Positions 9,184 through 56,895 of a DNA stretch of 60,487 nt are shown in pieces (position 1 is the first letter of the stretch; every line of letters starts with the position of its first letter). The DNA lies in contig CAZYDX010000002.1 in NCBI GenBank assembly GCA_964646455.1, positions 1 to 60,487 on the forward strand, given 5' to 3'. Made by a program: the position numbers and the translations under genes. The notes under the pieces were generated by a model. That model ran no database searches. It saw only the letters and a program-made list of their open reading frames with translations, and was not told the origin of the DNA. This DNA comes from an uncultured bacterium (GTDB lineage Bacteria > Fidelibacterota > Marinisomatia > Marinisomatales > UBA1611).

Positions 9184-10135
9184 TTATACAATTTCACAAC
9201 AACTACTACATAGAATCGGATTGTCTTCAAAATTTTTAAGAGAAATGTATTTTGATTTTGAAAAATCTTTTTTCTATAATGATAATTGCAACACTAAAGA
9301 TAATCATGTTTTTATTGTTGGTATGGCTCGTTCAGGAACCACAATTCTTCTTAATGCTATTTATAGATCAGGTATGTTTGCATCTTATACTTATCAAGAT
9401 ATGCCATTCGTTTTAGCTCCGAATCTATGGTCTAAAATTAATAAGAATAGACCATCAATAGATAAAATTGAAAGAGCGCATGGAGATGGCATTCGGATTG
9501 ATACAGATTCACCCGAAGCATTTGAAGAAGTTTTTTGGCTTACTTTCAAAGATAAACACGAATATTTATTTGATGAATTTGATAAGTTAATACAAATGTT
9601 GTGTCAAAAGTATGATAAAACTAGATATCTGAGTAAGAATAACCAAAATATTAGAAGATTAGGAGAAATTATTAAATATTTTCCGTCCTCTAAGGTGATA
9701 ATCCCATTTCGCGAACCATTACAGCATTCATATAGTTTATTCAATCAACATATTAAATTTAATAAAATTCAAAAGGATAATAGTTTTATTAAATCATATA
9801 TGTCCTGGATTGGGCATAGTGAGTTTGGTCTAGACTATAGCCCATTTGTTAATAAAAAAATACTTTATGAAGATCATAACGATATAAATCATTGGTTAGA
9901 ACAGTGGCTATTATCATATGAGTATTTAATGAAATATAAAAAGACTCCAAATGTATTTTTTAATTGTTATGAAACTTTATGTGGTGATGTTGCATTTTGG
10001 GAATCCTTATTGGATTTTATTGATATTGAAGGGTATGAATTTGAGTTTAAAGAGTCAAAAAAAGAAGTATCAGAAACATATAATGAAAATTTATATAAAA
10101 AATGTTTAGAGTTATATAGGTCTCTTTTAAAATGA
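9176..10135 (+). CDS. PAPS-dependent sulfotransferase family protein
   Basis: 5'-PSB loop 'VGMARSGTTILLN' and a 3'-PB-like 'IPFREPLQHSYS'. The ORF-track start is TTG at 9176; an alternative ATG is at 9245. Confidence 0.7.
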   Translation: MHNYTISQQLLHRIGLSSKFLREMYFDFEKSFFYNDNCNTKDNHVFIVGMARSGTTILLNAIYRSGMFASYTYQDMPFVLAPNLWSKINKNRPSIDKIERAHGDGIRIDTDSPEAFEEVFWLTFKDKHEYLFDEFDKLIQMLCQKYDKTRYLSKNNQNIRRLGEIIKYFPSSKVIIPFREPLQHSYSLFNQHIKFNKIQKDNSFIKSYMSWIGHSEFGLDYSPFVNKKILYEDHNDINHWLEQWLLSYEYLMKYKKTPNVFFNCYETLCGDVAFWESLLDFIDIEGYEFEFKESKKEVSETYNENLYKKCLELYRSLLK

Positions 10136-24028: not shown

Positions 24029-25033
24029 ATGGAGTGGGAGGAAGATGGTAGTTACCTATTATCTTGTAGAAACTCTTTGTTTTATGTAAATGATTTGGAT
24101 GAACAACCAATTCATTTGTTAGATTTTCCAGCACCTTTTATAAAAACTTGGATATGTAGATTTAGAATATTTCAAAGGCTTTTTCGTTTTATGTTTTATA
24201 ATGTAATAAAACTTAATGATGGAACAATTTTTATGACCTTTGGTAATGAACTTGCTACTTATAAGAATGGAAAAATTAAAATGATTGACACAAGTGGAAA
24301 ACGATTTAGAGTATTGAGGTCTGGTTGTGCATATGATAATAAACACTTTGTATTTTTTGGAGAATATTCAAAAAATGAAAATAAAGATCCAGTTAACGTT
24401 TACAAATATGATACAATAAATGATGAACTTGAAATTGTTTATACTTTTAAAAATGGTGTCATTAGGCATGTCCACGGAATATATTATGACAAATTTTCGG
24501 AAAAACTATGGTGTGTTACTGGAGATGATCTAAAGGAATGTAAAATGATTTGTACAAGTGATAGTTTTAAAACTATAGACATTATTGGAGAAGGTGATGA
24601 ATCATGGAGATGTGTTAGTCTAATTTTTACAAAAAAATATATTTATTACGGCACTGACTCTGAATTTCAGCAAAATTACTTGTATAAAATATGCAGAGAG
24701 TCTATGGATAGAAAAAAATTGTCAAAGGTAAATGGGCCAGTATATTACTCAAAATTAAAAAGTGATAATATTTTTTTTGCTACGACTGCTGAATTAAGAG
24801 AAGAAGATGAAGGTTCTGTTTATAAAGGCATTTCCCCAACTATATATGCAGTTCAAAGCGATGATATTGTAATTGAGGTTTTCTTTACAAAAAAGGATTC
24901 ATTTTCACCAATATATTTTATGCCGGGTTCAATCCATTTTAGTAGAGGTGTATCAAGCAGTGCTGAATTGTATTTTTACTGTGTTGGTGTTAAGAAATAT
25001 GATAATAAAGCTCTATCGTTATTAATTGAATAA
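24029..25033 (+). CDS. Hypothetical protein (possibly beta-propeller-like), unknown function
   Basis: 334-aa intact ORF, co-directional within the island, with no signal peptide or TM helix. 'IRHVHGIYYDKFSEKLWCVTGD' repeat-like strands. No family recognised. Confidence 0.45.
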   Translation: MEWEEDGSYLLSCRNSLFYVNDLDEQPIHLLDFPAPFIKTWICRFRIFQRLFRFMFYNVIKLNDGTIFMTFGNELATYKNGKIKMIDTSGKRFRVLRSGCAYDNKHFVFFGEYSKNENKDPVNVYKYDTINDELEIVYTFKNGVIRHVHGIYYDKFSEKLWCVTGDDLKECKMICTSDSFKTIDIIGEGDESWRCVSLIFTKKYIYYGTDSEFQQNYLYKICRESMDRKKLSKVNGPVYYSKLKSDNIFFATTAELREEDEGSVYKGISPTIYAVQSDDIVIEVFFTKKDSFSPIYFMPGSIHFSRGVSSSAELYFYCVGVKKYDNKALSLLIE

Positions 25034-25041: not shown

Positions 25042-26445
25042 ATGTTATTTCAATCACAATATTTTATAATTTTTTTCATTTTTGTTTTTTCTATTCATTG
25101 GATTTTACCAAAGAAAAGAAATAGACATTTTTTACTTCTTTTATCTTCCTATGTGTTCTATATGTTCTGGAACATTAAACTAGTTTTCCTATTGATATTT
25201 TCATCATTGCTGGATTTTTATATAGGTAATAGGATTTATAAAAAAAGAAGTTTTCATTTAGTTTTTTTCAGTGTTGCAATGAACCTATCAATATTAGGTT
25301 ATTTTAAATATTATAATTTTTTCATAGAATCTCTTCATGCACTACTCTCACAAGTTTTTAATTACGATTCTAGTTTCTCTACACTAAACATAATACTTCC
25401 TTTAGGTATTTCATTTTATACTTTTCAGAGCATGAGTTACACAATAGACATTTATCGTAGAAAGTACAGACCTTATAATTCATTAATGAATTTTGCTCTA
25501 TATGTGTCATTTTTTCCGCAATTAATTGCAGGTCCGATAGTAAGAGCAGACTATTTTAAAAAGCAAATTGATAGAAAAGTTAATCTTAGTTTTAAACTAA
25601 TAAATACGGGTGTTAGCCTCTTCATAATAGGCTGTTTCAAAAAGATAGTTCTAGCAGATCAAGCTGCAGTTTTTTCAAATGAATTTTTTTCTAATCCTTC
25701 ATCGTATACATTTTTTATTTCTATTGTTGGTGTTATGGCATTCTCTTTTCAGATCTATTTTGATTTTTCAGGATATACAGATATGGCAAGAGGCCTTGGG
25801 TATCTACTGGGATTTAGGTTGCCAGAAAATTTTTTACATCCTTATGGAGCACTTGGGATAAAAGATTTTTGGCGAAGATGGCATTTATCCTTATCTAGTT
25901 GGCTAAGAGATTATCTTTATATCCCCCTAGGTGGTTCCAGAATAAGCGCTTCTCGGACAAAAATTAATCTTCTTATAACTATGTTACTTGGTGGTTTATG
26001 GCATGGCGCCTCATGGAATTTTGTTATTTGGGGCGGTATTCATGGTTTATTATTATCCTTAGAAAATTATATAACAAATGTGTTTAATTTTAATAATTTT
26101 AGTAAAGTCGCAAATTTAAGTTTTAAAGTTTTTACTTTTTTTGTAGTCTGTTTTACTTGGATATTTTTTAGAGCGGAAACTTTTAGTGACTCGATAGTCA
26201 TATTAAAATCATTTACTGTTATTAATATAAATGATTTTTTTCATCAATTGTATTTTTTTGGAATTAGAAATTGGATTTTCGGTTTTATTTTACCGTTTTC
26301 TATTATAATTATTGGAGCCTTTAAACCAGTTAATAAAACCTTTAAAAGTTATGAAGTTTATGGCCTCTTTGTAATATTAGTTTTGTTATTAACCATTTTT
26401 CTAGTTGGCGGAGGTGGAAATGAATTTATTTACTTTCAATTTTAG
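25042..26445 (+). CDS. MBOAT family O-acyltransferase (AlgI/PatA-like), copy 2
   Basis: 467 aa. 'ISFYTFQSMSYTIDIY', 'FFPQLIAGPIVRA', 'RWHLSLSSWLRDYLYIPLGGSR', 'GGLWHG', and a C-terminal 'FIYFQF'. Confidence 0.85.
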   Translation: MLFQSQYFIIFFIFVFSIHWILPKKRNRHFLLLLSSYVFYMFWNIKLVFLLIFSSLLDFYIGNRIYKKRSFHLVFFSVAMNLSILGYFKYYNFFIESLHALLSQVFNYDSSFSTLNIILPLGISFYTFQSMSYTIDIYRRKYRPYNSLMNFALYVSFFPQLIAGPIVRADYFKKQIDRKVNLSFKLINTGVSLFIIGCFKKIVLADQAAVFSNEFFSNPSSYTFFISIVGVMAFSFQIYFDFSGYTDMARGLGYLLGFRLPENFLHPYGALGIKDFWRRWHLSLSSWLRDYLYIPLGGSRISASRTKINLLITMLLGGLWHGASWNFVIWGGIHGLLLSLENYITNVFNFNNFSKVANLSFKVFTFFVVCFTWIFFRAETFSDSIVILKSFTVININDFFHQLYFFGIRNWIFGFILPFSIIIIGAFKPVNKTFKSYEVYGLFVILVLLLTIFLVGGGGNEFIYFQF

Positions 26446-27410
26446 TGATGGATAAAAAATATTTTTTAATATTCATTTTAAGTTTTTGTGTTGTAAATAT
26501 TGCAGTTTCTCTTCTGCCAAACGGTCCTTATATGTCGATGTTTAAAAACTCAATTAAATTATCTAAAAAATTTAGACAAGAATATGAAGTAATTCTATAT
26601 GGAGATTCAAAAGGGACTATGTTTAATAAAGATTACTTTGATAGGAAGATACTTTCTTTAGCTTGTGAAAATAATAGTATTCTTTTTTCAAAGTTTTTGC
26701 ATGATGGGATAATAAATAGCCAAAAAAAATCATTAAAAGTTGTAATTATATTTTTAGGACCAAATAACTATAATAAAAATGGCATTTTTGTTACCAGAGA
26801 TTTTGGGCTTAGACGATTGGCAAAATTAAGTGATATTCCTGCTATTATTGGATATGATAATGGATTTGATAATGCCTTAGAAATAATATCTAGTAAATTA
26901 ATTCCAATTTATGCTAGAAGGATGGAAATTCGTGATTTTGACATTGTTAAGAATATGGTATCATTAAAATATGAAAATTTGTTAACACAAGGAATGAGAC
27001 ATAATACAAAACAGGTTGATTTATTAAAAATTTCGGCAATAGATAAAAGTGCTGATCGTAATTATTTACTTACATATAAGAGGTCAGTATATAACAATTT
27101 TGAGTTGTCTCATTTACATACTCAGTTTTTATTGGAAATTATAAATGTTAACAGCGCTTTGGGTATAAGTACAGTCTTAATACAACTACCAATTAAAAAT
27201 GAAATGTTAGAATTGCAAAAAAGTTTAGTCAAACAAGGATTTGATGAGTTAATTGATAAAATTATAGAAAGTAATGATATTTTATATTTTGATCTAAGAA
27301 ATCAAAACTATGATTTTTCTGATATTAATCATTTAAGTAGTAAAGGAGCTTATGACCTAACTAAAAATTTTATTAATCCATTAATTGAAAAACTCATTCT
27401 ATCTAGGTAA
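26445..27410 (+). CDS. Membrane-anchored SGNH/AlgJ/PatB-like putative acyltransferase partner of MBOAT-2
   Basis: 321 aa with an N-terminal TM helix, 'ILYGDSKG' (GDS block I) and a C-terminal 'DFSDINHLS' (DxxH). Its start overlaps or abuts the MBOAT stop (GTG 26445 or ATG 26448). Confidence 0.4.
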   Translation: MMDKKYFLIFILSFCVVNIAVSLLPNGPYMSMFKNSIKLSKKFRQEYEVILYGDSKGTMFNKDYFDRKILSLACENNSILFSKFLHDGIINSQKKSLKVVIIFLGPNNYNKNGIFVTRDFGLRRLAKLSDIPAIIGYDNGFDNALEIISSKLIPIYARRMEIRDFDIVKNMVSLKYENLLTQGMRHNTKQVDLLKISAIDKSADRNYLLTYKRSVYNNFELSHLHTQFLLEIINVNSALGISTVLIQLPIKNEMLELQKSLVKQGFDELIDKIIESNDILYFDLRNQNYDFSDINHLSSKGAYDLTKNFINPLIEKLILSR

Positions 27411-27415: not shown

Positions 27416-29173
27416 ATGTGCGGAATATTTGGTATTCATTCTAAAGGAAAGTTCAACATATCAAATAATATTTTGGAGCATAGGGGGCCTGATGGATGGG
27501 GTGTAAAATATTTTAAAGAAGAAGATGAGCATCTGACTTTTTTTCATTCAAGACTTGAGGTCATTGGTTTAGGTAATCAAGGAGAGCAGCCATTTAGTCA
27601 AGAGGGTTACAATTCTTTACTTACATATAATGGTGAAATATACAATTACAAAGAAATTAGAAATTATATTAAGAAAAAATTTAATTTTAATTTTCTGACT
27701 AAAACTGATACGGAAGTACTTTATGCATGTCTGAATAACGAAGGAGTTGAGAATACATTAAATATGATTAATGGTATGTTCTCTTTTGCTTTCTACACTT
27801 TGGATGACAAAAAAATTTATTTGTGCAGGGATAATCTAGGTATCAAACCAATGTATTATACTTCATTTGAGGACTGTTTTGCTTTTACTTCAGAAATAAA
27901 AGTTTTTTTTGAACATAATATTATAGAACCAGTTTTAAAAAAAGATATTTTAGGAGAGTACCTAGCAAATGGATGGGTTTATGAACCTGATACATTGTTT
28001 GCTGGTGTGTATAAGTTACAGTCTGCCAGTTATCTTGAGTATGATGTCAAATCAAAAAAAATTACTATAAATCAATATTGGCCCCTTGATAAAAAGAAAA
28101 ATGTTAGAGATCTTGACAAAATAATAAAATCTCAAACTGTCTCAGATGTGCCAGTTGGCATATACTTTAGCGGGGGTTATGATTCATCTCTTATTACATT
28201 AAGTTTATTAAACGAGAACATGACTCATTTTAATCTTGACTTAGATTCATCAGAAAATCAAGTCGTGGATTTAATAGAAAAAAAATATAAAATTAATATC
28301 AAGAGGATTAAACCTAATAATAGTAAGCTAGAATTATATGATAAGCTATTATTTCATATGGATGAGCCAATTTCTGACCCGGCAATTATTCCAGCTTATG
28401 AACTTGCAGCTATAGCAAAATCAAATGGACTTACCGTTATGCTTTCAGGAATGGGAGGCGATGAAGTAGATGGTGGATATACTAGGCATAGAATTATAAA
28501 TAACCTCGCTGTTGCTAGATTGATCCCAGATTTTATATTAAGATTGATTTTCAGAAAAAAGAAAAGAGATTATTTTCGTTTGAAGTCATTTCTTAATGAT
28601 CCGACTCCAAAAAATTATTTTTCACTCACATCTTATATGAATAAAGAAGATATTAATTCTTTAGTGGGATATTATTGGGAAGAAAAATATTATAAAAAGA
28701 TTGAATCACTTACAGATGGATTTAGTGAAAGAAAGAAATTCTATATACTCGATCTCAAAGGTTTTTTAGCTAGTCACAACCTTTTGTACATGGATAAAAG
28801 TTCAATGGCTGCCTCCATAGAAGTGAGAGTACCGCTTTTAGATAAGGACTTTGTATTGTTTATGTTATCAGATATTGAAAATAGGAATAAACTTGGATCA
28901 AAGCGTTTTATAAAAAAATTATTTAGAAAAAAAATAAAAGAGAAAATTCACATTAAAAAAGCAGGTTTTTCATATCCTATAAATGAATTTATTATTAATA
29001 AAATTAATTGGATTGAAATAATTAATTTTTTTAGTTCAAAAAATATTTTGGATACTAAAATTATTTCTAATTGGGTAAGTCAGGCAAAATCAGATGAAGA
29101 TTTAGTAGATATGAAACTTTGGCACATATACACTTTATACAGATGGCTTAAAATATTTAATGTTAATGTTTAA
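27416..29173 (+). CDS. Asparagine synthase family amidotransferase, copy 2
   Basis: The 'MCGIFGI' N-terminal Cys and the PP-loop 'YFSGGYDSS'. 585 aa. Confidence 0.8.
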   Translation: MCGIFGIHSKGKFNISNNILEHRGPDGWGVKYFKEEDEHLTFFHSRLEVIGLGNQGEQPFSQEGYNSLLTYNGEIYNYKEIRNYIKKKFNFNFLTKTDTEVLYACLNNEGVENTLNMINGMFSFAFYTLDDKKIYLCRDNLGIKPMYYTSFEDCFAFTSEIKVFFEHNIIEPVLKKDILGEYLANGWVYEPDTLFAGVYKLQSASYLEYDVKSKKITINQYWPLDKKKNVRDLDKIIKSQTVSDVPVGIYFSGGYDSSLITLSLLNENMTHFNLDLDSSENQVVDLIEKKYKINIKRIKPNNSKLELYDKLLFHMDEPISDPAIIPAYELAAIAKSNGLTVMLSGMGGDEVDGGYTRHRIINNLAVARLIPDFILRLIFRKKKRDYFRLKSFLNDPTPKNYFSLTSYMNKEDINSLVGYYWEEKYYKKIESLTDGFSERKKFYILDLKGFLASHNLLYMDKSSMAASIEVRVPLLDKDFVLFMLSDIENRNKLGSKRFIKKLFRKKIKEKIHIKKAGFSYPINEFIINKINWIEIINFFSSKNILDTKIISNWVSQAKSDEDLVDMKLWHIYTLYRWLKIFNVNV

Positions 29174-29298: not shown

Positions 29299-31476
29299 TT
29301 GAAACAGATATTCCAAGATTTAAAGACAAAAAAAATCAGCATTGAAGAATTGCCAGACATATCAATAAAAGAAGGATGTGTTTTAATACGAACTCATTAT
29401 TCTGTGATAAGTAGTGGAACTGAAAAAACAATAATTGATACAGCTTCCAAAAATTTATTGCAAAAAGCTCATGCTAGACCTGATTTAGTCAAACAAGTAA
29501 TAGCTAAAGTTAAAAAAGATGGTTTACTAGCGACCTATGACTCTGTCCTTGATCGACTTGATGCGCCTATACCCTTAGGCTATAGTGCCTCTGGAGTTGT
29601 ATTAAATGTTGGCGAGAAAGTAAATAATTTTAATGTAGGCGATCGTGTCGCTGTCGCTGGAGCAGGGTACGCTAATCACGCTACTATAAATTGTGTACCT
29701 GAAAACCTTGTTGTAAAAGTTCCTATAGAAGTGTCTTTGAAAGAGGCAGCCTATGCTACGATTGGAAGTATCGCAATGCAAGGAGTTAGAGTAGCAAAGC
29801 CTCAAATTGGAGAATATGTGGCTGTCTCAGGACTTGGTTTAGTAGGCCTAACAACAGCTATGATTTTGAAAGCTAATGGTTGTATGGTTTGTGGAATTGA
29901 TTTAGATCAAAAAAAGATTGATTTAGCAAAAACTTTAGGTTTAGATGTTTTAATTAATTTGAACAATAATAATGCTGGACAAATTATAAATGATTTTTCA
30001 AACGGTAGAGGTGTTGATCATACTGTCATTTGTGCCTCTACTGATAGTAACGCACCAATTTCACTTGCAGGTGATATAACAAAATCGAAAGGAGTAGTTA
30101 CCGTTGTCGGAACAGTGGGAATGGATATCCCTAGGCAGCCTTTTTATTTAAAGGAACTAGAATTAAGACTTTCAATGTCCTATGGGCCAGGGAGGTATGA
30201 TAAAAGTTATGAGGAGATGGGACTAGATTATCCTTATAATTATGTTCGTTGGACAGAAAATCGTAACATGTCTTCTATTTTAAATTTGATTGCTACTGAC
30301 AAATTAGATTTTTCTAAGATTACCACTCATGTTTTTAAATACGAAATGGCTATGGAAGCTTATAACACAATAAAAAGCGAAGAATTTTTTGTAGGTATCA
30401 TTCTTGATTATGATGTTAAATCATTAGAAGTCCCATATGAACCGCAATTAAGAAATTATCTTTCTAAACCATCATCGTTAATGAATAGAGATATAAAAAT
30501 AGGATTTATTGGTCTAGGTAATTACGCTTCATCAAAATTGATTCCTAGCCTAAAAAAAAATAACTTGGTTGAATTTGTTGGTTTAGCAAATGCCACGGGT
30601 ATTAGTTCAAAAAATAAAGCTAATAAGTATAAGTTCTCTTACTATTCCGCTAATTATAATGAAATTATTCTTAATAACGAAATTGATACTATTTTTATAT
30701 CAACTAGACATTCAAATCATTTTAAGTTATCCAAGCTTGCTATAGATAATGGTAAAAATGTTTTTGTTGAAAAACCTCCTTGCATTAATGAATTTGAATT
30801 GGATGAATTAATTAAGCTCTATGAAAATAATATTTGTTCCTCAAACGTAAAGTATATGGTTGGATTAAATCGACGTTTTTCACCACATGTTATGAAAATT
30901 AAAAATGAACTATCAAAAACCAAATCTAAAACTCAAATACTGTACAGAGTAAATGGTGGACCAATCCCATTGACTAGTTGGACTCATGAAATTAAACATG
31001 GCAGTGGCATGTTAATTGGTGAGATGTGTCATTTTATAGATACAATAACTTATTTAATAGGTTCTCAACCAAGAAAATTATTTGCCTACCAAGTGGATTT
31101 TTCTGATGAAAACACATACAAAAAATCCGATAATATAATTGTAAATTTGAAATTTGATAATGGCTCAGTCGCAACTTTATTTTACAACACTTTAGGAAAT
31201 AAAAATCTAGAAAAAGAGCATATTGAGATATATAGTGGAGGGCAAATCGGTGTAATTAAAGATTTTATTTCTTCAAAAATCACTACTGATTCCAAAAACA
31301 TCGTTAATAAAACTAATCGTCAAGATAAAGGACAAGACAATATGCTTATTAACTATATAGACTCAATTAAATACGATAAGCCTTCTCCAATATCCTTTGA
31401 AGAGATTTCAACAACAATGAGAGTTGTTTTTTCAATTAAAAAATCAATAGAATCTAATTTACCGCAAAATATATAA
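29299..31476 (+). CDS. Bi-domain oxidoreductase: Zn-dependent alcohol dehydrogenase (MDR)-like N-half fused to Gfo/Idh/MocA-like C-half
   Basis: 725 aa with a TTG start. The N-half has 'GDRVAVAGAGYANHA' and the Rossmann 'VSGLGLVGL'. The C-half has 'IGFIGLGNYASSKLIPSL' and 'VFVEKPPC' (the EKP motif of Gfo/Idh/MocA). Confidence 0.75.
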   Translation: MKQIFQDLKTKKISIEELPDISIKEGCVLIRTHYSVISSGTEKTIIDTASKNLLQKAHARPDLVKQVIAKVKKDGLLATYDSVLDRLDAPIPLGYSASGVVLNVGEKVNNFNVGDRVAVAGAGYANHATINCVPENLVVKVPIEVSLKEAAYATIGSIAMQGVRVAKPQIGEYVAVSGLGLVGLTTAMILKANGCMVCGIDLDQKKIDLAKTLGLDVLINLNNNNAGQIINDFSNGRGVDHTVICASTDSNAPISLAGDITKSKGVVTVVGTVGMDIPRQPFYLKELELRLSMSYGPGRYDKSYEEMGLDYPYNYVRWTENRNMSSILNLIATDKLDFSKITTHVFKYEMAMEAYNTIKSEEFFVGIILDYDVKSLEVPYEPQLRNYLSKPSSLMNRDIKIGFIGLGNYASSKLIPSLKKNNLVEFVGLANATGISSKNKANKYKFSYYSANYNEIILNNEIDTIFISTRHSNHFKLSKLAIDNGKNVFVEKPPCINEFELDELIKLYENNICSSNVKYMVGLNRRFSPHVMKIKNELSKTKSKTQILYRVNGGPIPLTSWTHEIKHGSGMLIGEMCHFIDTITYLIGSQPRKLFAYQVDFSDENTYKKSDNIIVNLKFDNGSVATLFYNTLGNKNLEKEHIEIYSGGQIGVIKDFISSKITTDSKNIVNKTNRQDKGQDNMLINYIDSIKYDKPSPISFEEISTTMRVVFSIKKSIESNLPQNI

Positions 31477-31487: not shown

Positions 31488-32468
31488 ATGGGGATAATTA
31501 ATCGTTATAGTTACTTATCTAGAATAATTAAAGCATATCTCACACCTTCTGTTAGCCAACTATCCTTTTGGCATGGTAGGCCAGAAATAAATCACATTAA
31601 TAATATGGAAAAACCTATACCATATTATATGAAATTTAAATACAAGGCTAATTATAAAGGTAAATATGACTCTAGTGGTATTCCTCTTTTAAATTATCAT
31701 GGTAATATTGGTTTACAGTATAATCCAATAGCAATTGCACAATATGGTTTAGGTAATTATAATATATTTCTAGAAAATCATGATATTATAAGAAAAAATA
31801 ATTTCATTGTAGTAGCAGAATGGCTTTGTGATAATTTGATTGAAAACGATAACCAAGTACCAGTTTGGTTTCATGAATTTGATTTTGAATATAAAGAAAT
31901 ACTTAAGTCACCTTGGTATTCTGGCCTTGCTCAAGGAATGGGAATATCTTTACTATTAAGGGCCTTTGAATTAACAAAAGAAACAAAATATATAGACAAA
32001 GCTAAAATGGCATATATTTCATTTGAAAAAACTATTGATGAAGGGGGAGTAATCTACATCGATAAGAATGGTTTTAATTGGATTGAGGAATATATTGTTT
32101 CTGAACCTACACATATCTTAAATGGATTTATTTGGGCTCTTTTTGGTGTTTATGATATGTGGAAATTTAATCATAGCAAGCATGCTAAGAATCTCTTTAT
32201 GTGTTGTGTAAATACGTTGGAAAAAAATCTTGAAAGGTATGATGTGGGATATTGGTCTAGATATGAACTAACTGAATTTAATTTTAAAATGCTTGCCAGT
32301 CCTTTTTATCATGATTTGCATATCGTTCAATTACAAATTTTTTATAATATGACTAATAAATTTTTTTTTAAAGATTCTGCTGATAGATGGTCAAAATATA
32401 AATTATCTAAACTAAATAGATACCGGGCATTTATTGAAAAATCTTTGTTTAAAATTTGCTATTATTAG
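31488..32468 (+). CDS. D-glucuronyl C5-epimerase C-terminal domain (C5-epim_C)-like protein
   Basis: 326 aa. 'LQYNPIAIAQYGLGNYN' and 'SPWYSGLAQGMGISLLLRAFELTKE' closely resemble motifs I recall from animal heparosan-N-sulfate glucuronate 5-epimerase. Also 'HILNGFIWALFGVYD' and 'YHDLHIVQL'. Confidence 0.7.
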   Translation: MGIINRYSYLSRIIKAYLTPSVSQLSFWHGRPEINHINNMEKPIPYYMKFKYKANYKGKYDSSGIPLLNYHGNIGLQYNPIAIAQYGLGNYNIFLENHDIIRKNNFIVVAEWLCDNLIENDNQVPVWFHEFDFEYKEILKSPWYSGLAQGMGISLLLRAFELTKETKYIDKAKMAYISFEKTIDEGGVIYIDKNGFNWIEEYIVSEPTHILNGFIWALFGVYDMWKFNHSKHAKNLFMCCVNTLEKNLERYDVGYWSRYELTEFNFKMLASPFYHDLHIVQLQIFYNMTNKFFFKDSADRWSKYKLSKLNRYRAFIEKSLFKICYY

Positions 32469-32489: not shown

Positions 32490-33695
32490 ATGAAAATATT
32501 ATTTTTATCTTTTTATTTTCCGCCTGACTTTTGCGCTGGTTCGTTTAGAGCCAATGGTTTAAAAAATGCATTTCTAAAGAATGAAGATTTAACCAAGCTC
32601 TTAATTATAACGACATATCCACAAAGGTATGGACATATTAAAAACGTTCCTATAATTGAGGATACTCATAACTTCAGTATAAAAAGAATAAAAACTCCAG
32701 AACATAAAAATAAATTCTACAGACAAATATATAATTTTTTTGTCTTTAGTATTCATTCTTTGTTATTTGCATTAAAAAATAGAAAATCCTTTGATCATAT
32801 TTTTATTACTTCTTCAAGGTTCGGGACTGCCTTGCTTGGTTATTTAATAAGTATAATTGTTAATAAGCCTCTCCACACTGATATAAGAGATATTTTTTCT
32901 GATAGTTTAAATTCCATTACAAAATTAAAAAATCCACTTGGCAAAATAATCAAACACATAGTAAAAAAAACTGAAACATTAATATTGTCTAGATCTACAT
33001 GGGTAAATTTTGTTTCTCCAGGATTTCTTGATTATTTTAAACAAATTCCAAATTCAAAAGTGACTGTATTTACTAATGGCATTGATGATATCTTTTTAGA
33101 TAATTATTCAAAATTAGTTCAAGATTTTCCAAAAAAAGTTCAATTGCCTTTAAAGGTGATCTATACTGGGAATATAGGATTAGGTCAAGGGCTAGAAAAA
33201 GTAATTATACCTATTGCAAAACATTTTAAGAATAAAATTGAGTTTAAAATAATTGGTGATGGTAGCGCATTAGATTTATTATTGGAACATATCAATGATA
33301 ATAGATTACATAACATTATAATTATTCCTCCTATGAGAAGAAATAATTTGATTAAACACTATGATAAAGCAGATATTCTATTTTTGCATTTAAATGATAT
33401 CCCGGCATTTAAAAAAGTTCTGCCATCAAAAGTTTTTGAGTATGCAACTTATAACAAATATATTTTAGCTGGAGTGTCAGGCACAGCTCGAAAATTTCTA
33501 GTTGATAATTTAGATGGGGTTAATATTTTTGATCCTGGAGATTACAATAGTGCAATTATATTAATTGAAAAAATAATAAGCTCCTTACATGAGGAATCAA
33601 GAATTAATAACGAAGTATTTATCAAAAAATATGATAGAAAAGTTATTTCTGATAAAATGGTTAAATATTTTTTTAAGATAACTAAGGAGAATTAA
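32490..33695 (+). CDS. Glycosyltransferase, GT4 (WbuB-like)
   Basis: 401 aa. 'MKILFLSFYFPPDFCAGSFR' (Glyco_trans_4_4-like N-terminus) and 'PSKVFEYATYNKYILAG'. Confidence 0.75.
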   Translation: MKILFLSFYFPPDFCAGSFRANGLKNAFLKNEDLTKLLIITTYPQRYGHIKNVPIIEDTHNFSIKRIKTPEHKNKFYRQIYNFFVFSIHSLLFALKNRKSFDHIFITSSRFGTALLGYLISIIVNKPLHTDIRDIFSDSLNSITKLKNPLGKIIKHIVKKTETLILSRSTWVNFVSPGFLDYFKQIPNSKVTVFTNGIDDIFLDNYSKLVQDFPKKVQLPLKVIYTGNIGLGQGLEKVIIPIAKHFKNKIEFKIIGDGSALDLLLEHINDNRLHNIIIIPPMRRNNLIKHYDKADILFLHLNDIPAFKKVLPSKVFEYATYNKYILAGVSGTARKFLVDNLDGVNIFDPGDYNSAIILIEKIISSLHEESRINNEVFIKKYDRKVISDKMVKYFFKITKEN

Positions 33696-34595
33696 ATTAA
33701 TATTTTATTAGCAGGTGGGACAGGGTACATAGGCTCTAATCTTTTTAAATATTTAAGGAAAAAATATAATGTTTTTTCAACTACTAGAGATGACAAAAAT
33801 ATGATTGATAATCATATATATATTGATTTTAAAAACCCCGATTCATTTAAAAATATTTTAAAAAAAATTGATAAGATTGATATTTTAATATTCTTGATAG
33901 GTTTGGCCCACGATAAAGGCAAAAATTCTAAAAAAGAAAAATTTATTAATACAAATTATAGAACATTTGTTAATCTTATTGATTTCATGAATTCATCAGG
34001 ATCTTTGCCTAGAAAATTAATTTATGTAAGTACCATTTCTGTATATGGTGAAAAATTAAAAACTGATGTTTACAATGAAAATATTAATCCAGAACCTTGC
34101 ACTCCCTACGCAATATCCAAGCATATGGCTGAAAAATATTTGTTTGATAATTATAAAAGTGATTACTGGATTCTAAGGTTAGCACCAGTCTATTCAGATG
34201 AGTTTTTATTAAATATTGACAGAAGGACTAAAGTCTTAAATAGATTTTATCGGGTTGGTTCTGGCCAAAATAAATTATCGTTGTGTAATTTGAAAAATAT
34301 ATTTTCTAGTGTTGAAGGAATAGTACAAGGTAAAATTAAAAATGGCACTTACAATTTATCAGATAATGTTATTTACAATTATAATGATCTATTAAAAACG
34401 CAAAATGCACAAAGCACTATTCATATACCAATTTTTGTCGTAAAAATAATATATTATTTTGGGAAGTTGATAAAAAATAATTTTTTAATTGAGAATTCTA
34501 TAAAATTAATTTCTACAAACTTGTACCCCTCTGATAAAATGTGTGAATATTTAACTATTAATTATGATTTAAATGATTTGATAGATGTTAATTAG
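33696..34595 (+). CDS. NAD-dependent epimerase/dehydratase (SDR) family protein, probable non-canonical (ATT) start
   Basis: The ORF-track Met (33801) removes the Rossmann motif. In-frame upstream codons encode 'ILLAGGTGYIGSNL' (GxxGxxG) straight after the previous stop. A strong SD, AAGGAG (33684-33689), lies 6 nt before ATT 33696. The catalytic 'YAISK' (YxxxK) is present. Confidence 0.6.
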   Translation: MNILLAGGTGYIGSNLFKYLRKKYNVFSTTRDDKNMIDNHIYIDFKNPDSFKNILKKIDKIDILIFLIGLAHDKGKNSKKEKFINTNYRTFVNLIDFMNSSGSLPRKLIYVSTISVYGEKLKTDVYNENINPEPCTPYAISKHMAEKYLFDNYKSDYWILRLAPVYSDEFLLNIDRRTKVLNRFYRVGSGQNKLSLCNLKNIFSSVEGIVQGKIKNGTYNLSDNVIYNYNDLLKTQNAQSTIHIPIFVVKIIYYFGKLIKNNFLIENSIKLISTNLYPSDKMCEYLTINYDLNDLIDVN

Positions 34596-35139
34596 AAGGA
34601 CAATAGTAACTTTAGTTTTGATATCTTTATCTCCAATTATATTCATTGTATCATTAATTATTTTTTTTTCAGATGGTCTGCCAATCTTTTTTAAGCAAAA
34701 AAGAATAGGTATAAATAATAAATTATTTTTCCTCTATAAATTTAGAACTATGAAAAATAGCACGCCTGAATTAGCAACCGATTTGTTAGAGGACCATGAA
34801 AAATATTATATAAAATTTGGTAACCTAATTAGAACTCTAAGCATAGATGAAATTCCGCAACTATTAAATATTTTTAAAGGTGAAATGAATTTTGTAGGGC
34901 CTAGGCCAGCTTTTTATAAACAAGATGAATTAATCGATTTAAGAACAAAAAAGAATATTCATTCGTTAAGGCCTGGAATTACGGGTTGGGCACAGGTTAA
35001 TGGACGGGATAATATTTCACTAGAAAAAAAAGTTGAGTTAGATCAATATTATCTATGCAACGAAAACATATTTTTAGATTTAAAAATTATTTTTTTTACT
35101 TTATTAAAAGTATTACTAATTAAGGATGTAAAAGGATGA
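34585..35139 (+). CDS. Initiating undecaprenyl-phosphate sugar-phosphate transferase (monotopic PGT, PglC/WbaP C-domain type)
   Basis: 184 aa with an N-terminal re-entrant hydrophobic helix. 'PIFFKQKRIG', 'FYKFRTM', 'IDEIPQLLNIFKGEMNFVGPRP'. Confidence 0.85.
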   Translation: MLIRRTIVTLVLISLSPIIFIVSLIIFFSDGLPIFFKQKRIGINNKLFFLYKFRTMKNSTPELATDLLEDHEKYYIKFGNLIRTLSIDEIPQLLNIFKGEMNFVGPRPAFYKQDELIDLRTKKNIHSLRPGITGWAQVNGRDNISLEKKVELDQYYLCNENIFLDLKIIFFTLLKVLLIKDVKG

Positions 35140-36218
35140 GTAAAAACATTATTTCGATAATAGGTGCTAGACCAAATTTTATGAAAATGGCACCAGTAAT
35201 TAATTCATTGAAATCAATAGATGTAAATAATATTGTGGTTCATACTGGGCAGCATTATGACCAAAAAATGTCCAAGGATATTTTAAATGAATTAGGTTTT
35301 CAAGAACCTAAATACTTTTTGGGTGCAGGTGGCGGAACACAAGTGAACCAAATATATAAAATTATGAAACGTTTTGAGAAAATTTGCTTAAAAGAAAAAC
35401 CAGTACTAGTCATTGTCGCAGGTGATGTTAATTCAACTCTAGCTTGTGCTTTAGTCGCTGTAAAAATGGATATCAAAATTGCACATGTTGAAGCTGGTCT
35501 ACGTTCAGGTGATCTAGAAATGCCTGAAGAAATAAATAGAATATTAACTGATAGAGTATCTGAGTTACTTTTTACCACTGAGAAGAATGCTGAAAAAAAT
35601 CTTTTAAAAGAGGGTATTAGTCAAGAGAAAATTCATTTTGTTGGAAATTGTATGATTGACTCTGTAAATAAATTCATTTCAAAAGCTACTGATTTAGAAT
35701 TCTGGAAAAATTTAGGGTTTGGTAGGGAAGAATATTTATTGGCGACAATACATCGTCCCTCTAATGTAGATTCAAAAATTGACTTATCTATGGTAGTTAA
35801 AACTCTTAATGAAATCTCAAACAAATTACCAATTATTTTTCCGATACATCCAAGAACACGAAAAAAAATAGATGAATTTTCTTTAAAATTAAATAAATCT
35901 ATCATGCTTCTTGAACCTTTATCTTATATACCTTTTTTGAGTTTAATGTCTGAGTCAAAAATTATTCTTACTGACAGTGGTGGCATTCAAGAAGAAGCCA
36001 CCTTTTTAGGTGTTCCATGTATTACAATGAGAGAGAATACTGAAAGACCAATTACTACTGAAATTGGAACAAATATTTTAGCTGGGACAAAGTATGAAAA
36101 TATTATTTTAATATTTGATAAGATTGTGAAAAAGAAAAATTTTAAGTATAAAATTCCTCCTCTTTGGGATGGCTTTGCGGGCGAGAGGATAAAAGATATA
36201 ATTAAAAATGTAATATGA
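35136..36218 (+). CDS. wecB: UDP-N-acetylglucosamine 2-epimerase (non-hydrolysing)
   Basis: 360 aa. 'IIGARPNFMKMAPV', 'GDVNSTLA', 'HVEAGLRS', 'LTDSGGIQEEA'. Confidence 0.9.
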   Translation: MSKNIISIIGARPNFMKMAPVINSLKSIDVNNIVVHTGQHYDQKMSKDILNELGFQEPKYFLGAGGGTQVNQIYKIMKRFEKICLKEKPVLVIVAGDVNSTLACALVAVKMDIKIAHVEAGLRSGDLEMPEEINRILTDRVSELLFTTEKNAEKNLLKEGISQEKIHFVGNCMIDSVNKFISKATDLEFWKNLGFGREEYLLATIHRPSNVDSKIDLSMVVKTLNEISNKLPIIFPIHPRTRKKIDEFSLKLNKSIMLLEPLSYIPFLSLMSESKIILTDSGGIQEEATFLGVPCITMRENTERPITTEIGTNILAGTKYENIILIFDKIVKKKNFKYKIPPLWDGFAGERIKDIIKNVI

Positions 36219-37561
36219 ATTTGTCTTTCTCCAAAATATTTAAATTATTCTCGTTACAAATTATTCATTTTTATTATCTATTTGGATTCCAACCATTGGA
36301 TATAGAAATAATGAATTTTCATGATGAAATAGCAAATAATGATAGATTTTATTTTAAGGACTTACAACAAAGGAATTTGATAAAATCGGATTTAAATGAT
36401 TATGATTTGGTTTCAAAATTTATTTTTGGATCTGAGTTGAAGGAAGGCAATCCACTTAATTATTCAGATGTTCATTTTGAAGGTAAAATATCAAATTTTT
36501 ATTTTCATATCAATCCAACTTTTATCAATTCTAGAAATAAAGGATATATTGGTTCAAAATACTCTAGATCAAATATAAGTGCCAGATTTGAACATGCATA
36601 TTTGAAATATGAGCATGATAATTTTTACCTTAAAATTGGAAGATCTCCAGTTAATTGGGGTGAGGCTCATTCATATAGCATCATTCAGTCTGGTTTATCA
36701 CCTGGATATGATCATATTGGCTTTAATATTAATTTAGTCAATATTAATTATGATTTAATTATAGGGCAATTAAGCTCTGTTGAAGATGAACGATATGGAA
36801 GAATTAAACGTTTTGTATCAGCAAAAAAAATAACATTTACTCCAAATGACAAGTTATCATTTGGATTTGGAGATCAAATAATATACACCGGCCATAATAG
36901 ATCTATTGAACTGCATTATTTAAATCCTTTCATTCCATATTTTTTATCAGGTTTAGAGTATGAGGAAGACGAAACAGTGTTCGATAATGACAATTCTATG
37001 TTATTTTTATTCGGCAAATTTTCATATAAAAAATATCTTTCTTTTTTTGGAGAAGCACTGATTGATGACTTTCAAATAGATGAGACAAATAGACCAAATA
37101 AAATTGGGTTAAAAATTGGAATGAATGGTTATGTAACAATTATGAAAAACAAATTGTCCTTTTACATTGACCGTTCATTTATACAAGCATCAACATATAT
37201 TCATAATGGTCTTTATACTAATTGGGACAATTTAAATTATAACTTGGGTTCTGTTTTTGGGGCAGGTAGTAAAAATTACTTTGGGCAATTTGTATATCAT
37301 TTTTCCAAAAATATTAAATTATTACTTGAACTTAATCATCTTGAGAAAGAAAACTTTAATAATACAAACCTTGGAAATGATAATTATGAAAAAAATTTCA
37401 TTTTTTATGACTTTAGTATTATTAAAAAATACTCAAATAATTATTTAAAGATTGGTAGAAAGAATTTCGATATACCATACGGAATTAAAAAAAATTTTTA
37501 TCACCTAGGCCCAGATAAGTTTTATTTTTCCTATATGTATAATTTTAAGCTAAATTATTAA
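36215..37561 (+). CDS. Putative outer-membrane capsule-assembly protein (Wzi-like)
   Basis: 448 aa with a beta-strand-rich alternating pattern. 'IGRSPVNWGEAHSYSIIQSGLSPGYDHIGF' and 'GEALIDDFQ' resemble the Caps_assemb_Wzi family as I recall it. Ends in aromatic-rich strands. Confidence 0.4.
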   Translation: MNLSFSKIFKLFSLQIIHFYYLFGFQPLDIEIMNFHDEIANNDRFYFKDLQQRNLIKSDLNDYDLVSKFIFGSELKEGNPLNYSDVHFEGKISNFYFHINPTFINSRNKGYIGSKYSRSNISARFEHAYLKYEHDNFYLKIGRSPVNWGEAHSYSIIQSGLSPGYDHIGFNINLVNINYDLIIGQLSSVEDERYGRIKRFVSAKKITFTPNDKLSFGFGDQIIYTGHNRSIELHYLNPFIPYFLSGLEYEEDETVFDNDNSMLFLFGKFSYKKYLSFFGEALIDDFQIDETNRPNKIGLKIGMNGYVTIMKNKLSFYIDRSFIQASTYIHNGLYTNWDNLNYNLGSVFGAGSKNYFGQFVYHFSKNIKLLLELNHLEKENFNNTNLGNDNYEKNFIFYDFSIIKKYSNNYLKIGRKNFDIPYGIKKNFYHLGPDKFYFSYMYNFKLNY

Positions 37562-37705: not shown

Positions 37706-39613
37706 ATGAGAAAAATAAGTAGTTTAATTAACAACAAAAACTTTATCCTTTTATTAGTCTCAGACGTTGGACTAATTCTATTTTCAGTTTTCCTTAGTTC
37801 TTTTATTCGTTATGAATTTCAGGTTCTAAATGAATTCATTTTATCTTTCAATCAGAACCATGTATTTATTTTCGTATTCCTAAAGATTCTTTCATTTAGA
37901 TCATTTGGGCTTTATAGAGGAATGTGGCGATACACAAGTGTTTGGGATTTATTTAATATTTTCAAGGCGAATACTTTGGCCACAATTTTAATTATCTTAT
38001 GTGTATATTTTTTTAGAGGTTTTAGCGGCTTATCTAGATCAGTATTTATAATTGATTTTATCTTATGTGCGGTATTAGTGAGTTTATCAAGGTTAGGTAT
38101 AAGAGTATTTTTTTCCCATATTCTGTCCTCAATCGAAGTGAATTATCAAGCATCGGTTAGAAAGAAAATTATATTGATTGGTGCTGGGGATACCGGACAA
38201 ATAATTCTTCGTCAAATTCTTGTTAAGCACAGGGGAAAATACGAAGTCATAGGCTTCCTTGATGATAATTTAAATAAAATTGGGTCTAGAATTCATGATG
38301 TCGAAGTATTAGACTCAATTAAAAATATTCAATCTATAAATAAATATTATGATGAGATTTATATTTGTATCCCTTCAGCTTCTACTGCTAAAATGAGGGA
38401 AATAGTTAATTTTTGCAAATTAACAGAAAAACCATTTAAAACACTCCCATCAATATCTGAGGTAGTTGAAGGGAAAATTTCTCTATCACAATTAAGAGAG
38501 GTCTCGTTAGTCGACTTATTGGGTAGAGATGAGGTCAGTCTTGATAAGAAATCAATAAATAGGTTCATTAAAGGGAAAAGAATATTAGTTACTGGAGCTG
38601 GAGGGAGTATAGGATCTGAGCTAGTCAACCAGTGTGTTAAATTTAATCCTTCCATCCTAGTAATGGTTGAAATAAGTGAGCTTAATTTGTTTGAAATTGA
38701 GCGTCGGGTATTGGCTGAAAGTTCTGATGTTCTATTTAAACCAGTTCTGTCCGATATAAGAGATTTAAAAACTCTAGATCAGATATTTCTAGAATTCCAA
38801 CCACAGATTGTCTTTCATGCAGCAGCCTACAAACATGTTCCAATGCAAGAATCATTTCCTTGGGAAGCTGTAAAAACTAACGTATTTGGAACAAATAATG
38901 TAGCTGAAATTTCCGTTAAACATGGTGTTGAAAAGTTTGTTCTTGTTAGTACTGATAAAGCTGTAAAGCCTACCAATGTAATGGGTGCTACAAAAAGATT
39001 GGCGGAAATAATATCTCAAAATTATAATAGAATTAGTCCGCAAACTGAATTTATGGCTGTAAGGTTTGGTAATGTTTTAGGAAGTTCGGGTAGTGTTATC
39101 CCTATTTTTCAGGAACAAATTAAAAATGGAGGTCCTTTAACAATAACTGATCCTGATATGGAGCGTTATTTTATGTCAATACCAGAAGCTAGTCAATTAA
39201 TTCTCCAAGCCGGCTCCATAGGAGTTGGTGGGGAAGTTTTTATTTTAGATATGGGTGACCCAATTAAAATTGTTGATATTGCAAGTGAACTAATCCGTTT
39301 GTCTGGTTATGAACCAGATTTAGATATACCTATAAAAATCACAGGCACTAGGCCAGGAGAGAAAAAAATTGAGGAGTTGTCGTTGCCCACAGAAAAATTA
39401 GATGGTACTAGACATGATAGGATATTTGTCTTAAATAATATTGAATCTAACCAGGAGCAACTTTCAAAGATTGTCAAAGATATAGAAAAATTAAAAGTAT
39501 TGACAGCGAATAGTAAACCAAACCAAATAAGATTATTATTGTCATCAGTACTACCTGAATATGAACCTGAAGATGACCCTATATTCTTAAATTTTAAAGG
39601 TGTAGAAGCATAA
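37706..39613 (+). CDS. Membrane-bound polysaccharide biosynthesis protein CapD/PglF/WbpM family (UDP-HexNAc 4,6-dehydratase)
   Basis: 635 aa with 4 N-terminal TM helices. 'VTGAGGSIGSEL', 'FHAAAYKHVP', 'STDKAVKPTNVMGATKR'. Confidence 0.9.
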   Translation: MRKISSLINNKNFILLLVSDVGLILFSVFLSSFIRYEFQVLNEFILSFNQNHVFIFVFLKILSFRSFGLYRGMWRYTSVWDLFNIFKANTLATILIILCVYFFRGFSGLSRSVFIIDFILCAVLVSLSRLGIRVFFSHILSSIEVNYQASVRKKIILIGAGDTGQIILRQILVKHRGKYEVIGFLDDNLNKIGSRIHDVEVLDSIKNIQSINKYYDEIYICIPSASTAKMREIVNFCKLTEKPFKTLPSISEVVEGKISLSQLREVSLVDLLGRDEVSLDKKSINRFIKGKRILVTGAGGSIGSELVNQCVKFNPSILVMVEISELNLFEIERRVLAESSDVLFKPVLSDIRDLKTLDQIFLEFQPQIVFHAAAYKHVPMQESFPWEAVKTNVFGTNNVAEISVKHGVEKFVLVSTDKAVKPTNVMGATKRLAEIISQNYNRISPQTEFMAVRFGNVLGSSGSVIPIFQEQIKNGGPLTITDPDMERYFMSIPEASQLILQAGSIGVGGEVFILDMGDPIKIVDIASELIRLSGYEPDLDIPIKITGTRPGEKKIEELSLPTEKLDGTRHDRIFVLNNIESNQEQLSKIVKDIEKLKVLTANSKPNQIRLLLSSVLPEYEPEDDPIFLNFKGVEA

Positions 39614-49928: not shown

Positions 49929-49942
49929 AAATAAGGTAAGTT

Positions 49943-51667: not shown

Positions 51668-51679
51668 AAAGGTCCTATA

Positions 51680-52201: not shown

Positions 52202-52204
52202 TTT

Positions 52205-53272: not shown

Positions 53273-53438
53273 ATAATAATCTTATTCATTGTGTTTATGA
53301 TATAAAAGTGTTTTATTACTAAATAATTTATTGATGATTAATACCTAATTATAATTAAATTAATAGTCTTGAATAATTTATTCTTTTAGGAAAATGAGTC
53401 AATAATTATATAAAAGTTTAAATTAAATAAGTGAAATA

Positions 53439-54461: not shown

Positions 54462-54464
54462 GCT

Positions 54465-55472: not shown

Positions 55473-55480
55473 ATTTCCAT

Positions 55481-56884: not shown

Positions 56885-56895
56885 GTAAATAATTT

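Follow-up and report, generated by a model that had tools for sequence, protein, structure and literature searches.

A predicted single-domain relative of animal heparan-sulfate C5-epimerase in a surface-glycan island of an uncultured Marinisomatales bacterium

A Glce-family gene in the window

The window analyzed here is the whole stretch of 60,487 nucleotides studied (contig CAZYDX010000002.1 of assembly GCA_964646455.1) and originates from an uncultured bacterium of the order Marinisomatales. On its forward strand, an open reading frame (ORF) with an ATG start (31488..32468, +) encodes a protein of 326 amino acids, which we annotated as putative uronyl C5-epimerase of the single-domain Glce family (PF06662). 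A sequence-only reading of this DNA had described the protein as a bacterial homologue of the heparan-sulfate C5-epimerase of animals (Glce) and had placed it in a toolkit for polymer-level epimerization and sulfation of a glycosaminoglycan-like (GAG-like) surface glycan. The observation itself was confirmed by our analysis, and its interpretation was partly supported. As predicted from its sequence, the protein is a bacterial relative of animal Glce that carries the complete set of catalytic residues.

Searching the protein against Pfam, we obtained a C5-epim_C match (PF06662) with an E-value of 3.8e-48 and 163.9 bits (gathering score 23.3), which is far above chance level. The match spans residues 126-302 of the protein and positions 6-187 of the 188 profile positions. 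None of the NCBIfam models matched the epimerase. When the protein was compared with the PDB sequences (phmmer), the sole significant matches were zebrafish Glce (4pw2, 3.6e-26) and human GLCE (6hzz and 6i01, about 4e-26 to 1e-25). The full 326-residue reading frame and its start are supported, since homologues align across residues 1-326. No paralogue of the epimerase was found elsewhere in the window, and promoter and terminator scans performed no better than on shuffled sequence.

Two motifs had been quoted in the sequence-only reading as conserved blocks of the C-terminal domain. This description holds for PWYSGLAQGMGISLLLRAFELTKE (residues 142-165), in which 14 of 24 residues are identical with the corresponding block of human GLCE. 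It does not hold for YNPIAIAQYGL (residues 78-88), which lies outside the Pfam match to the C-terminal domain. The latter motif aligns to YPIQIAQYGL of the human enzyme (chain positions of about 105-134), an alignment that is weak by itself (7 bits). In human GLCE, about 180 residues without counterpart in the bacterial protein separate the YPIQIAQYGL segment from the C-terminal match (chain 314-519). Within the bacterial clade, an alignment of 48 homologues indicated that Q77, Y78, N79, P80, I81, A82, Q85, and L88 are invariant.

The AlphaFold2 model of the epimerase, for which 48 homologues were used, reached a predicted local distance difference test score (pLDDT) of 90.4 and a predicted template-modeling score (pTM) of 0.90. 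It folds as an alpha/alpha barrel, and in the comparison with vertebrate Glce that the sequence-only reading had recommended, the model superposes on the solved Glce catalytic domain (Foldseek). The eight top PDB matches were human and zebrafish Glce (6i01, 6hzz, 4pw2) with E-values of 6e-13 to 3e-12, and these alignments comprised 212-216 columns with root-mean-square deviations (rmsd) of 1.7-2.1 A and 29-31% identity (6i01: E-value 6e-13, rmsd 1.8 A). Other alpha/alpha-barrel enzymes (GH76, cellobiose 2-epimerase, YteR) followed at E-values of 7e-4 or weaker, about nine orders of magnitude behind Glce, and the weaker neighbors also included GH88/GH105-type hydrolases and one polysaccharide lyase. 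Taken together, the profile match, the PDB sequence matches, and the predicted fold bear out the homology to animal Glce.

The catalytic residues of human GLCE are E499, Y500, N510, Y560, and Y578 (PMC13308652), with Y578 serving as base and E499 as proton donor (PMC12834895). We obtained the human numbering by adding 90 to the chain index; numbered in this way, the position at which the 6hzz and 6i01 chains differ (Y to F) is exactly 578. In our alignment these residues correspond to E201, Y202, N212, Y259, and Y274 of the bacterial protein, all of which are invariant across the 48 homologues. The sequence-only reading had named a missing C5-epim_C match and missing catalytic residues as outcomes that would speak against it; the match and all five residues are present. 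Presumably, the bacterial protein employs Glce chemistry, which is abstraction and re-addition of a proton at C5 of a bound uronic acid.

Animal Glce consists of a beta-hairpin, a beta-sandwich, and an alpha-helical domain (PMC13308652). The bacterial protein shares with it the Pfam domain, the alpha-helical barrel of the catalytic domain (rmsd 1.8 A, about 30% identity), and the five catalytic residues. However, the animal enzyme comprises about 600 residues and involves a membrane anchor, an N-terminal beta-hairpin dimerization domain, and a beta-sandwich, whereas the bacterial protein is a minimal single-domain form. In the alignment with the PDB sequences, counterparts of the beta-hairpin and beta-sandwich domains are absent. 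The protein therefore falls outside the strict architecture of Enzyme Commission class (EC) 5.1.3.17 (three domains, membrane anchor, lumenal location). We found no membrane span (maximum 19-residue Kyte-Doolittle value 1.15), and judged from hydropathy and inspection, there is no signal-peptide-like N-terminus. Because signal peptide and transmembrane segment are both missing, a cytoplasmic location is predicted, and the protein is probably soluble or peripherally associated with the membrane. Its N-terminal helix (residues 3-18) is only moderately amphipathic (hydrophobic moment 0.44, compared with 0.23 on average over the protein), which is no more than a hint at a membrane-associating amphipathic helix. 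The protein is basic with an isoelectric point (pI) of 8.7. Animal Glce resides in the Golgi lumen, whereas the bacterial enzyme is predicted to be cytoplasmic and its substrate is probably not N-sulfated heparosan.

AlgG and AlgE proteins fold as right-handed beta-helices. These alginate mannuronan C5-epimerases (AlgG, AlgE1-7) catalyze the same overall reaction, in which a D-uronic acid is converted to its L-epimer within a glycan, but they are periplasmic or secreted and act on the finished polymer, whereas our protein is an alpha/alpha barrel without signal peptide. On the basis of this fold, both the AlgG-type family and the NAD-dependent nucleotide-sugar epimerases were ruled out as families to which the protein might belong.

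The epimerase itself is not new, since prokaryotic PF06662 proteins were catalogued in polysaccharide gene clusters more than a decade ago (Raedts et al., 2011) and the family is very large. This catalogue includes a 323-residue protein of E. coli O112ab / S. boydii 15 (Gae), and the O-antigen of E. coli O112ab contains L-iduronic acid (L-IdoA). For the RED65_08024 protein of Bermanella marisrubri, conversion of D-glucuronic acid (GlcA) to iduronic acid (IdoA) was observed in vitro, and in 2026 this enzyme was still called the only identified bacterial example. The remark of the sequence-only reading that few bacterial members have been studied is thus correct, with a single one (Bermanella) assayed. 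In a word-indexed search, we retrieved 3968 proteins at E<=1e-5, and the best matches shared 50-80% identity with the epimerase and were nearly all 323-330 residues long. In an exhaustive search of 1.84 billion representatives at 50% identity, 4623 clusters passed a threshold of E<=1e-3, of which 3131 remained at E<=1e-10 and 432 at E<=1e-30; most of the 150 best matches listed were 280-350 residues long. The named relatives come from Chloroflexi, Deltaproteobacteria, and Auribacterota (the last with one partial locus, L001), and many homologues already carry JGI or NCBI names such as "heparosan-N-sulfate-glucuronate 5-epimerase" or "D-glucuronyl C5-epimerase family protein". As prokaryotic homologues of Glce have been known since 2011, one further member is not surprising by itself. 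With the Bermanella protein, Gae, and the candidates from V. cholerae and other bacteria (Raedts et al., 2011), our protein shares the PF06662 domain in a protein family of about 300-450 residues and the location in surface-polysaccharide clusters beside glycosyltransferases. Compared by description, it differs from the Bermanella and E. coli proteins in that it belongs to a distinct and very widespread clade of about 326 residues with its own gene cassette. This conserved and little-studied cassette is the fresher point, and in the literature searched we found no published description of a cassette combining oxidoreductase, beta-propeller, carbamoyltransferase, AsnB, and family 4 glycosyltransferase (GT4).

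The cassette in the window and in related loci

The epimerase gene is located in a low-GC surface-glycan island (25-30% GC), which extends from position 1 of the window to about 41.6 kb. Directly upstream, and ending 11 nucleotides before the epimerase, lies the gene of a 725-residue oxidoreductase (29299..31476, +), for which Pfam and NCBIfam indicated two domains. The N-terminal domain resembles zinc-dependent alcohol dehydrogenases and medium-chain dehydrogenases/reductases (Zn-ADH/MDR-like) and the C-terminal one is a GFO/IDH/MocA domain; the best NCBIfam matches, both sub-threshold, were scyllo-inosose 3-dehydrogenase (N-terminal) and inositol 2-dehydrogenase (C-terminal). Such a domain pair would fit an oxidize-then-reduce inversion of a sugar hydroxyl. 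It is preceded by an AsnB-type glutamine amidotransferase (27416..29173, +; Pfam Asn_synthase and GATase; NCBIfam TIGR01536 above cut-off), which also gave a below-threshold match to the XrtA/PEP-CTERM amidotransferase model of NCBIfam and is a candidate for amidation of a uronic acid carboxyl. Further upstream there are an MBOAT gene (starting at 25042; Pfam E-value 1.7e-33) with a 321-residue partner (starting at 26445; together 25042..27410, +) and the gene of a 334-residue beta-propeller protein (24029..25033, +; our family fam3). A NodU-like carbamoyltransferase (22245..23972, +; Pfam Carbam_trans_N and Carbam_trans_C), which may O-carbamoylate a sugar, a family 1 glycosyltransferase (GT1, starting at 21005, +; Pfam), and a second AsnB-type amidotransferase (19151..20995, +; Pfam and NCBIfam) complete this side.

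For the beta-propeller protein, we obtained no Pfam match even at an E-value of 10, no NCBIfam match, and no match to PDB profiles, and all of its 183 homologues are named "hypothetical protein". The assignment comes from its AlphaFold2 model (pLDDT 94.9), for which Foldseek returned generic Kelch/WD40 propellers only (TM-score 0.5-0.6). Many Arg, His, Asp, and Glu residues are invariant in this family, and these charged positions suggest an active or binding site.

Downstream, the epimerase gene is followed after 21 nucleotides by a GT4-type glycosyltransferase (32490..33695, +; Glycos_transf_1, with a weak match to the WcaI family). Next come a 264-residue NAD epimerase/reductase of the short-chain dehydrogenase/reductase (SDR) type (33801..34595, +; Pfam Epimerase; family 19 in the marine loci) and a small Bac_transf phosphoglycosyltransferase (34585..35139, +; Pfam E-value 3.3e-53), which would start a lipid-linked repeat unit. 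WecB, a non-hydrolyzing UDP-GlcNAc 2-epimerase that makes UDP-ManNAc, is encoded at 35136..36218 (+) and scored 330.5 bits with TIGR00236 (cut-off 210). The adjacent genes encode a Wzi-like outer-membrane protein of capsule assembly (36215..37561, +; Pfam Caps_assemb_Wzi, E-value 8.6e-14) and a UDP-HexNAc 4,6-dehydratase of the WbpM/PglF type (37706..39613, +; Pfam Polysacc_synt_2, E-value 7.6e-116). On the opposite strand there are a family 2 glycosyltransferase (GT2, starting at 39616, -; Pfam) and a WecC-type NDP-sugar 6-dehydrogenase (40298..41626, -; TIGR03026, 436 bits). Among the sub-models, the dehydrogenase scored highest with UDP-ManNAc dehydrogenases (292 and 261 bits), followed by TviB (211) and Ugd (195), all of these scores being below the equivalog cut-offs; this enzyme probably provides the uronic acid. 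WecB, with its score above the equivalog cut-off, and the dehydrogenase, as an NDP-sugar dehydrogenase with UDP-ManNAc enzymes as best sub-models, agree with the assignments of the sequence-only reading.

The sulfotransferases mentioned in that reading are also encoded in the same low-GC island, as an Arylsulfotran_2 protein of 455 residues (7258..8625, +; Pfam) and a Sulfotransfer_3 protein of 319 residues (9176..10135, +; Pfam), both 21-24 kb upstream of the epimerase. Between the two genes there is a 123-residue ORF (8812-9183) without family match. No obvious genes for the synthesis of 3'-phosphoadenosine-5'-phosphosulfate (PAPS) were found in the window. The island encodes at least eight glycosyl- or phosphoglycosyltransferases, which points to a complex heteropolysaccharide, and the Pfam matches of the glycosyltransferases in the window are generic only (GT1/GT4, GT2, PMT_2, Bac_transf). 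Among the window ORFs of at least 100 residues, several of which lack any Pfam match, no heparosan, hyaluronan, or chondroitin synthase and no NDST-like protein was annotated by Pfam. A phosphoglycosyltransferase, many glycosyltransferases, and export of the Wzi or Wza type give the locus the appearance of a pathway that builds lipid-linked repeat units.

For comparison, we assembled a set of 77 non-redundant loci from six look-ups on long contigs and a metagenome scan with alignment (587 relatives, 80 loci kept). Genes were called as conservation-ranked ORFs and clustered by blastp. The most conserved neighbor is GT4: in 54 of 71 loci its gene comes immediately after the epimerase gene, and the two usually overlap or lie no more than 10 nucleotides apart. 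GT4 is followed by a Poly_export (Wza-type) gene on the opposite strand at position +2 (33/53 loci) and a WecA/MraY-type Glycos_transf_4 gene at position +3 (23/45). The commonest gene directly upstream is that of the beta-propeller family (position -1 in 31 of 65 loci). The two-domain oxidoreductase is present anywhere in the locus in 30 of the 77 loci; counting only the 22 loci whose upstream sequence exceeds 8 kb, we found it in 12. It precedes the epimerase directly in most marine low-GC loci and in the Chloroflexi and Deltaproteobacteria loci. We further found a carbamoyltransferase in 27 of the 77 loci (at position -2 in 21 of these), AsnB in 17 (recurring upstream of the epimerase), and one GT2 family in 20. 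Each of the 22 loci with long upstream sequence (more than 8 kb) contains one or more of the recurrent upstream partners (oxidoreductase, beta-propeller, carbamoyltransferase, AsnB).

The canonical order in soil loci is AsnB, GT2, AsnB, oxidoreductase, carbamoyltransferase, beta-propeller, epimerase, GT4, Wza (opposite strand), and WecA-like. GAF, PilZ, and Sel1 proteins follow the soil cassette, and in two loci (L076, L078) PilZ-GAF-Sel1, GAF, and radical-SAM proteins are encoded about 5-9 kb downstream. These genes suggest that the exopolysaccharide of these soil bacteria is under control linked to cyclic di-guanosine monophosphate (c-di-GMP). The core of the marine low-GC loci is tighter (oxidoreductase, (WecB), epimerase, GT4, SDR, Bac_transf), and in nearly all of these loci WecB lies one to three genes from the epimerase. 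In the marine loci L011 and L018, Bac_transf is placed as in the window, a syntenic locus (L003) has the same NDP-sugar dehydrogenase, and Wzi-like genes also occur in L003, L022, and L070. In one Deltaproteobacteria locus, a gene for a CapK-like ligase replaces AsnB. Our window unites the soil-type and marine-type gene sets and contains in addition the inserted MBOAT pair. Neither MBOAT nor its 321-residue partner has a homologue in the 76 other loci, so that the pair is a lineage-specific insertion inside the cassette. Homologues of the two sulfotransferases were found in none of the 76 other loci within 10 kb of the epimerase, a comparison limited by the fact that in the window itself they lie beyond this distance, and one Chloroflexi locus contains an unrelated Sulfotransfer_1 gene. 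Within this range, the sulfotransferases are not conserved partners of the epimerase.

Other parts of the window deserve a short description. At its beginning there is an apparent operon (1282-7255, +) encoding a fused E1 thiamine pyrophosphate-dependent 2-oxoacid dehydrogenase (640 residues), an E2-like lipoyl/acyltransferase, an 80-residue ORF (4255-4497), an ACPS-type phosphopantetheinyl transferase, an MBOAT protein, and a 326-residue protein without family. The 80-residue ORF is at the position of a carrier protein, yet it has no Pfam match. This operon looks like a Dlt-like system leading from a carrier protein to MBOAT, through which an unusual acyl group would be O-linked to an extracytoplasmic glycan. 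The 321-residue partner of the second MBOAT is faintly similar to the 326-residue protein that follows the first one (blastp E-value 4e-4). Behind the island, the GC content rises to 33-37% in housekeeping genes, which encode aldehyde dehydrogenase, FBA, IlvD/B/N/C, two GAPDH, and pyruvate kinase; the regions contrasted by GC content are 1-47000 and 48000-60487. One of the housekeeping proteins (KARI) falls into a 90% cluster with a protein named Candidatus Marinimicrobia/Neomarinimicrobiota, a single name by which the bacterium is probably of the marine SAR406 type. The GAPDH genes are tandem paralogues (340 and 335 residues; 53439-55472, +) directly upstream of pyruvate kinase. The GC skew is positive over the whole window, and almost all genes are on the plus strand.

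Site of action, substrate, and alternative explanations

We consider it very probable that the protein epimerizes C5 of a uronic acid and that a glycan intermediate is its substrate. By analogy with the human enzyme (Y578, E499), Y274 would function as base and E201 as acid, aided by Y202, N212, and Y259, and a D-uronic acid residue would be converted to its L-configured C5 epimer. The reaction may take place at the cytoplasmic face of the membrane on an undecaprenyl-diphosphate-linked repeat-unit intermediate and not on the finished extracellular polymer. We regard this lipid-linked, cytoplasmic stage as the probable one because the protein lacks signal peptide and membrane span and because its gene is tightly coupled to GT4. 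Similarly, a lipid-linked oligosaccharide is the more likely substrate than a finished polymer, since the protein is predicted to be cytoplasmic and the locus is of the repeat-unit type. As to the sugar, the best candidate is N-acetylmannosaminuronic acid (ManNAcA), which WecB and the WecC-like dehydrogenase could supply, GT4 from the neighboring gene could attach, and the epimerase could convert to N-acetyl-L-gulosaminuronic acid (L-GulNAcA); this specific conversion is our tentative choice and may well be wrong. Amidation of the epimerized residue by the AsnB-type enzymes, carbamoylation, or both might follow. Enzymes acting on the carboxyl of uronic acids (AsnB or CapK-like) and the carbamoyltransferase are among the recurrent partners, and the marine clade adds WecB. 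Site of action, order of steps, and identity of the sugar are inferred. Overall, a Glce-type C5-epimerase working on a lipid-linked repeat unit is the best explanation of our data, and we hold it with moderate confidence.

This working order has a precedent that involves an unrelated enzyme. In the Vibrio polysaccharide (VPS) of V. cholerae, ManNAcA is transferred onto lipid-linked glucose, epimerized at C5 to L-GulNAcA, and amidated at the carboxyl (PMC13463779; PMC3901696). V. cholerae VpsJ and Halobacterium Agl32 follow the same proposed logic, which is C5 epimerization after lipid-linked transfer on the cytoplasmic side. These two proteins have been described as having other folds and active sites than Glce (AGE/2-epimerase-like; PMC13308652; PMC13463779), and we compare them here by their working logic only. 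In VPS, too, the sugar comes from WecB/WecC-type enzymes and its carboxyl is later amidated, but this system uses a CapK-like glycine ligase, whereas our locus has AsnB-type amidotransferases.

Several points weigh against the proposed reaction on a lipid-linked repeat unit. It assigns no role to the oxidoreductase and the beta-propeller, although both are co-conserved with the epimerase. The only characterized bacterial member, the Bermanella enzyme, was tested on GlcA in a desulfated heparin-type polymer. Within 10 kb, an NDP-sugar 6-dehydrogenase is absent from most related loci, in particular those from soil, and WecB is often absent too, so that different lineages might use different uronic acids or encode the necessary enzymes at another site. 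Moreover, the cytoplasmic placement depends on an N-terminus that was judged by hydropathy and inspection, and sequence does not separate an epimerase from a lyase sharing its first step.

The main alternative to ManNAcA is GlcA. The same mechanism at the same stage might convert GlcA to L-IdoA, or act on another uronic acid such as the N-acetylated glucosaminuronic or galactosaminuronic acids (GlcNAcA, GalNAcA), an option that we consider unlikely. Conversion of GlcA to IdoA is the only activity demonstrated in the family, and L-IdoA is found in E. coli O112ab, the serotype for which the 323-residue homologue is listed (the role of Gae being inferred). Most soil loci are without nearby WecB, and our dehydrogenase stays below all equivalog cut-offs; however, this enzyme scores highest with the UDP-ManNAc dehydrogenase models, and WecB is tightly linked to the epimerase in the marine clade to which the window belongs. 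The enzyme might also act one step earlier, on a nucleotide sugar before glycosyl transfer (e.g., UDP-ManNAcA to UDP-L-GulNAcA). A small soluble protein that lacks the extra Glce domains and is encoded amid WecB, SDR, and dehydrogenase genes would suit this role, but known family members act on sugars already in a chain and the strongest genomic coupling is to a glycosyltransferase, with reading frames often overlapping or abutting, which makes this option highly improbable.

Polymer-level action, as proposed in the sequence-only reading, would mean that the enzyme epimerizes a finished GAG-like sulfated surface polymer in the way heparosan is converted to heparan sulfate. Glce is a polymer-acting enzyme, the basic bacterial protein would suit an anionic substrate, two sulfotransferase genes share the island, and a sulfotransferase is encoded 6 kb upstream in one relative (L006). 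Nevertheless, we consider this explanation very unlikely and could not uphold the corresponding claims. A polymer assembled in the periplasm would hardly be accessible to a protein without signal peptide or transmembrane segment, and the beta-hairpin and beta-sandwich domains of Glce are missing. The GAG-like character of the glycan is weakened by a locus with many transferases of generic Pfam families and a phosphoglycosyltransferase, which points to a repeat-unit pathway and in which no gene was annotated as GAG synthase. The link to sulfation is weakened in that the two genes lie 21-24 kb away and have no homologues within 10 kb of the epimerase in the 76 other loci; the conserved partners are different ones.

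Epimerases and lyases have the proton abstraction step at C5 in common. Together with the weaker fold neighbors (GH76, GH88/GH105-type hydrolases, polysaccharide lyase), this is what could be said for a lyase, a trimming enzyme similar to hydrolases, or a subunit that binds glycans without catalytic activity, each merely sharing the alpha/alpha-barrel fold. All five Glce catalytic residues are invariant, though, Glce matches about nine orders of magnitude better than any hydrolase or lyase, and the setting is biosynthetic and cytoplasmic, so that an activity other than epimerization is barely plausible.

Meaning for Marinimicrobia and for the family

A broader reading concerns the cassette as a whole. 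It may represent one conserved, undescribed module that builds an L-configured, amidated and/or carbamoylated hexosaminuronic acid on a lipid carrier and is shared by Marinimicrobia (SAR406), Acidobacteriota-like soil bacteria, Chloroflexi, and Deltaproteobacteria. The beta-propeller and the oxidoreductase would then be new partner enzymes, and the marine product would be further sulfated and acylated to a truly GAG-like capsule. We consider this reading quite unlikely, but if it were true, an abundant uncultured ocean bacterium would carry a GAG-like sulfated capsule.

Independent of this reading, our analysis places a complete minimal Glce-type enzyme with intact catalytic residues in what is probably a SAR406/Marinimicrobia genome. 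The members of the widespread clade of about 326 residues are small, predicted to be soluble, and probably easily expressed, which makes them attractive for chemo-enzymatic work on L-uronic acids. Finally, the cassette with its beta-propeller and its two-domain oxidoreductase provides a testable lead to an exopolysaccharide that is apparently common in soil and ocean metagenomes.

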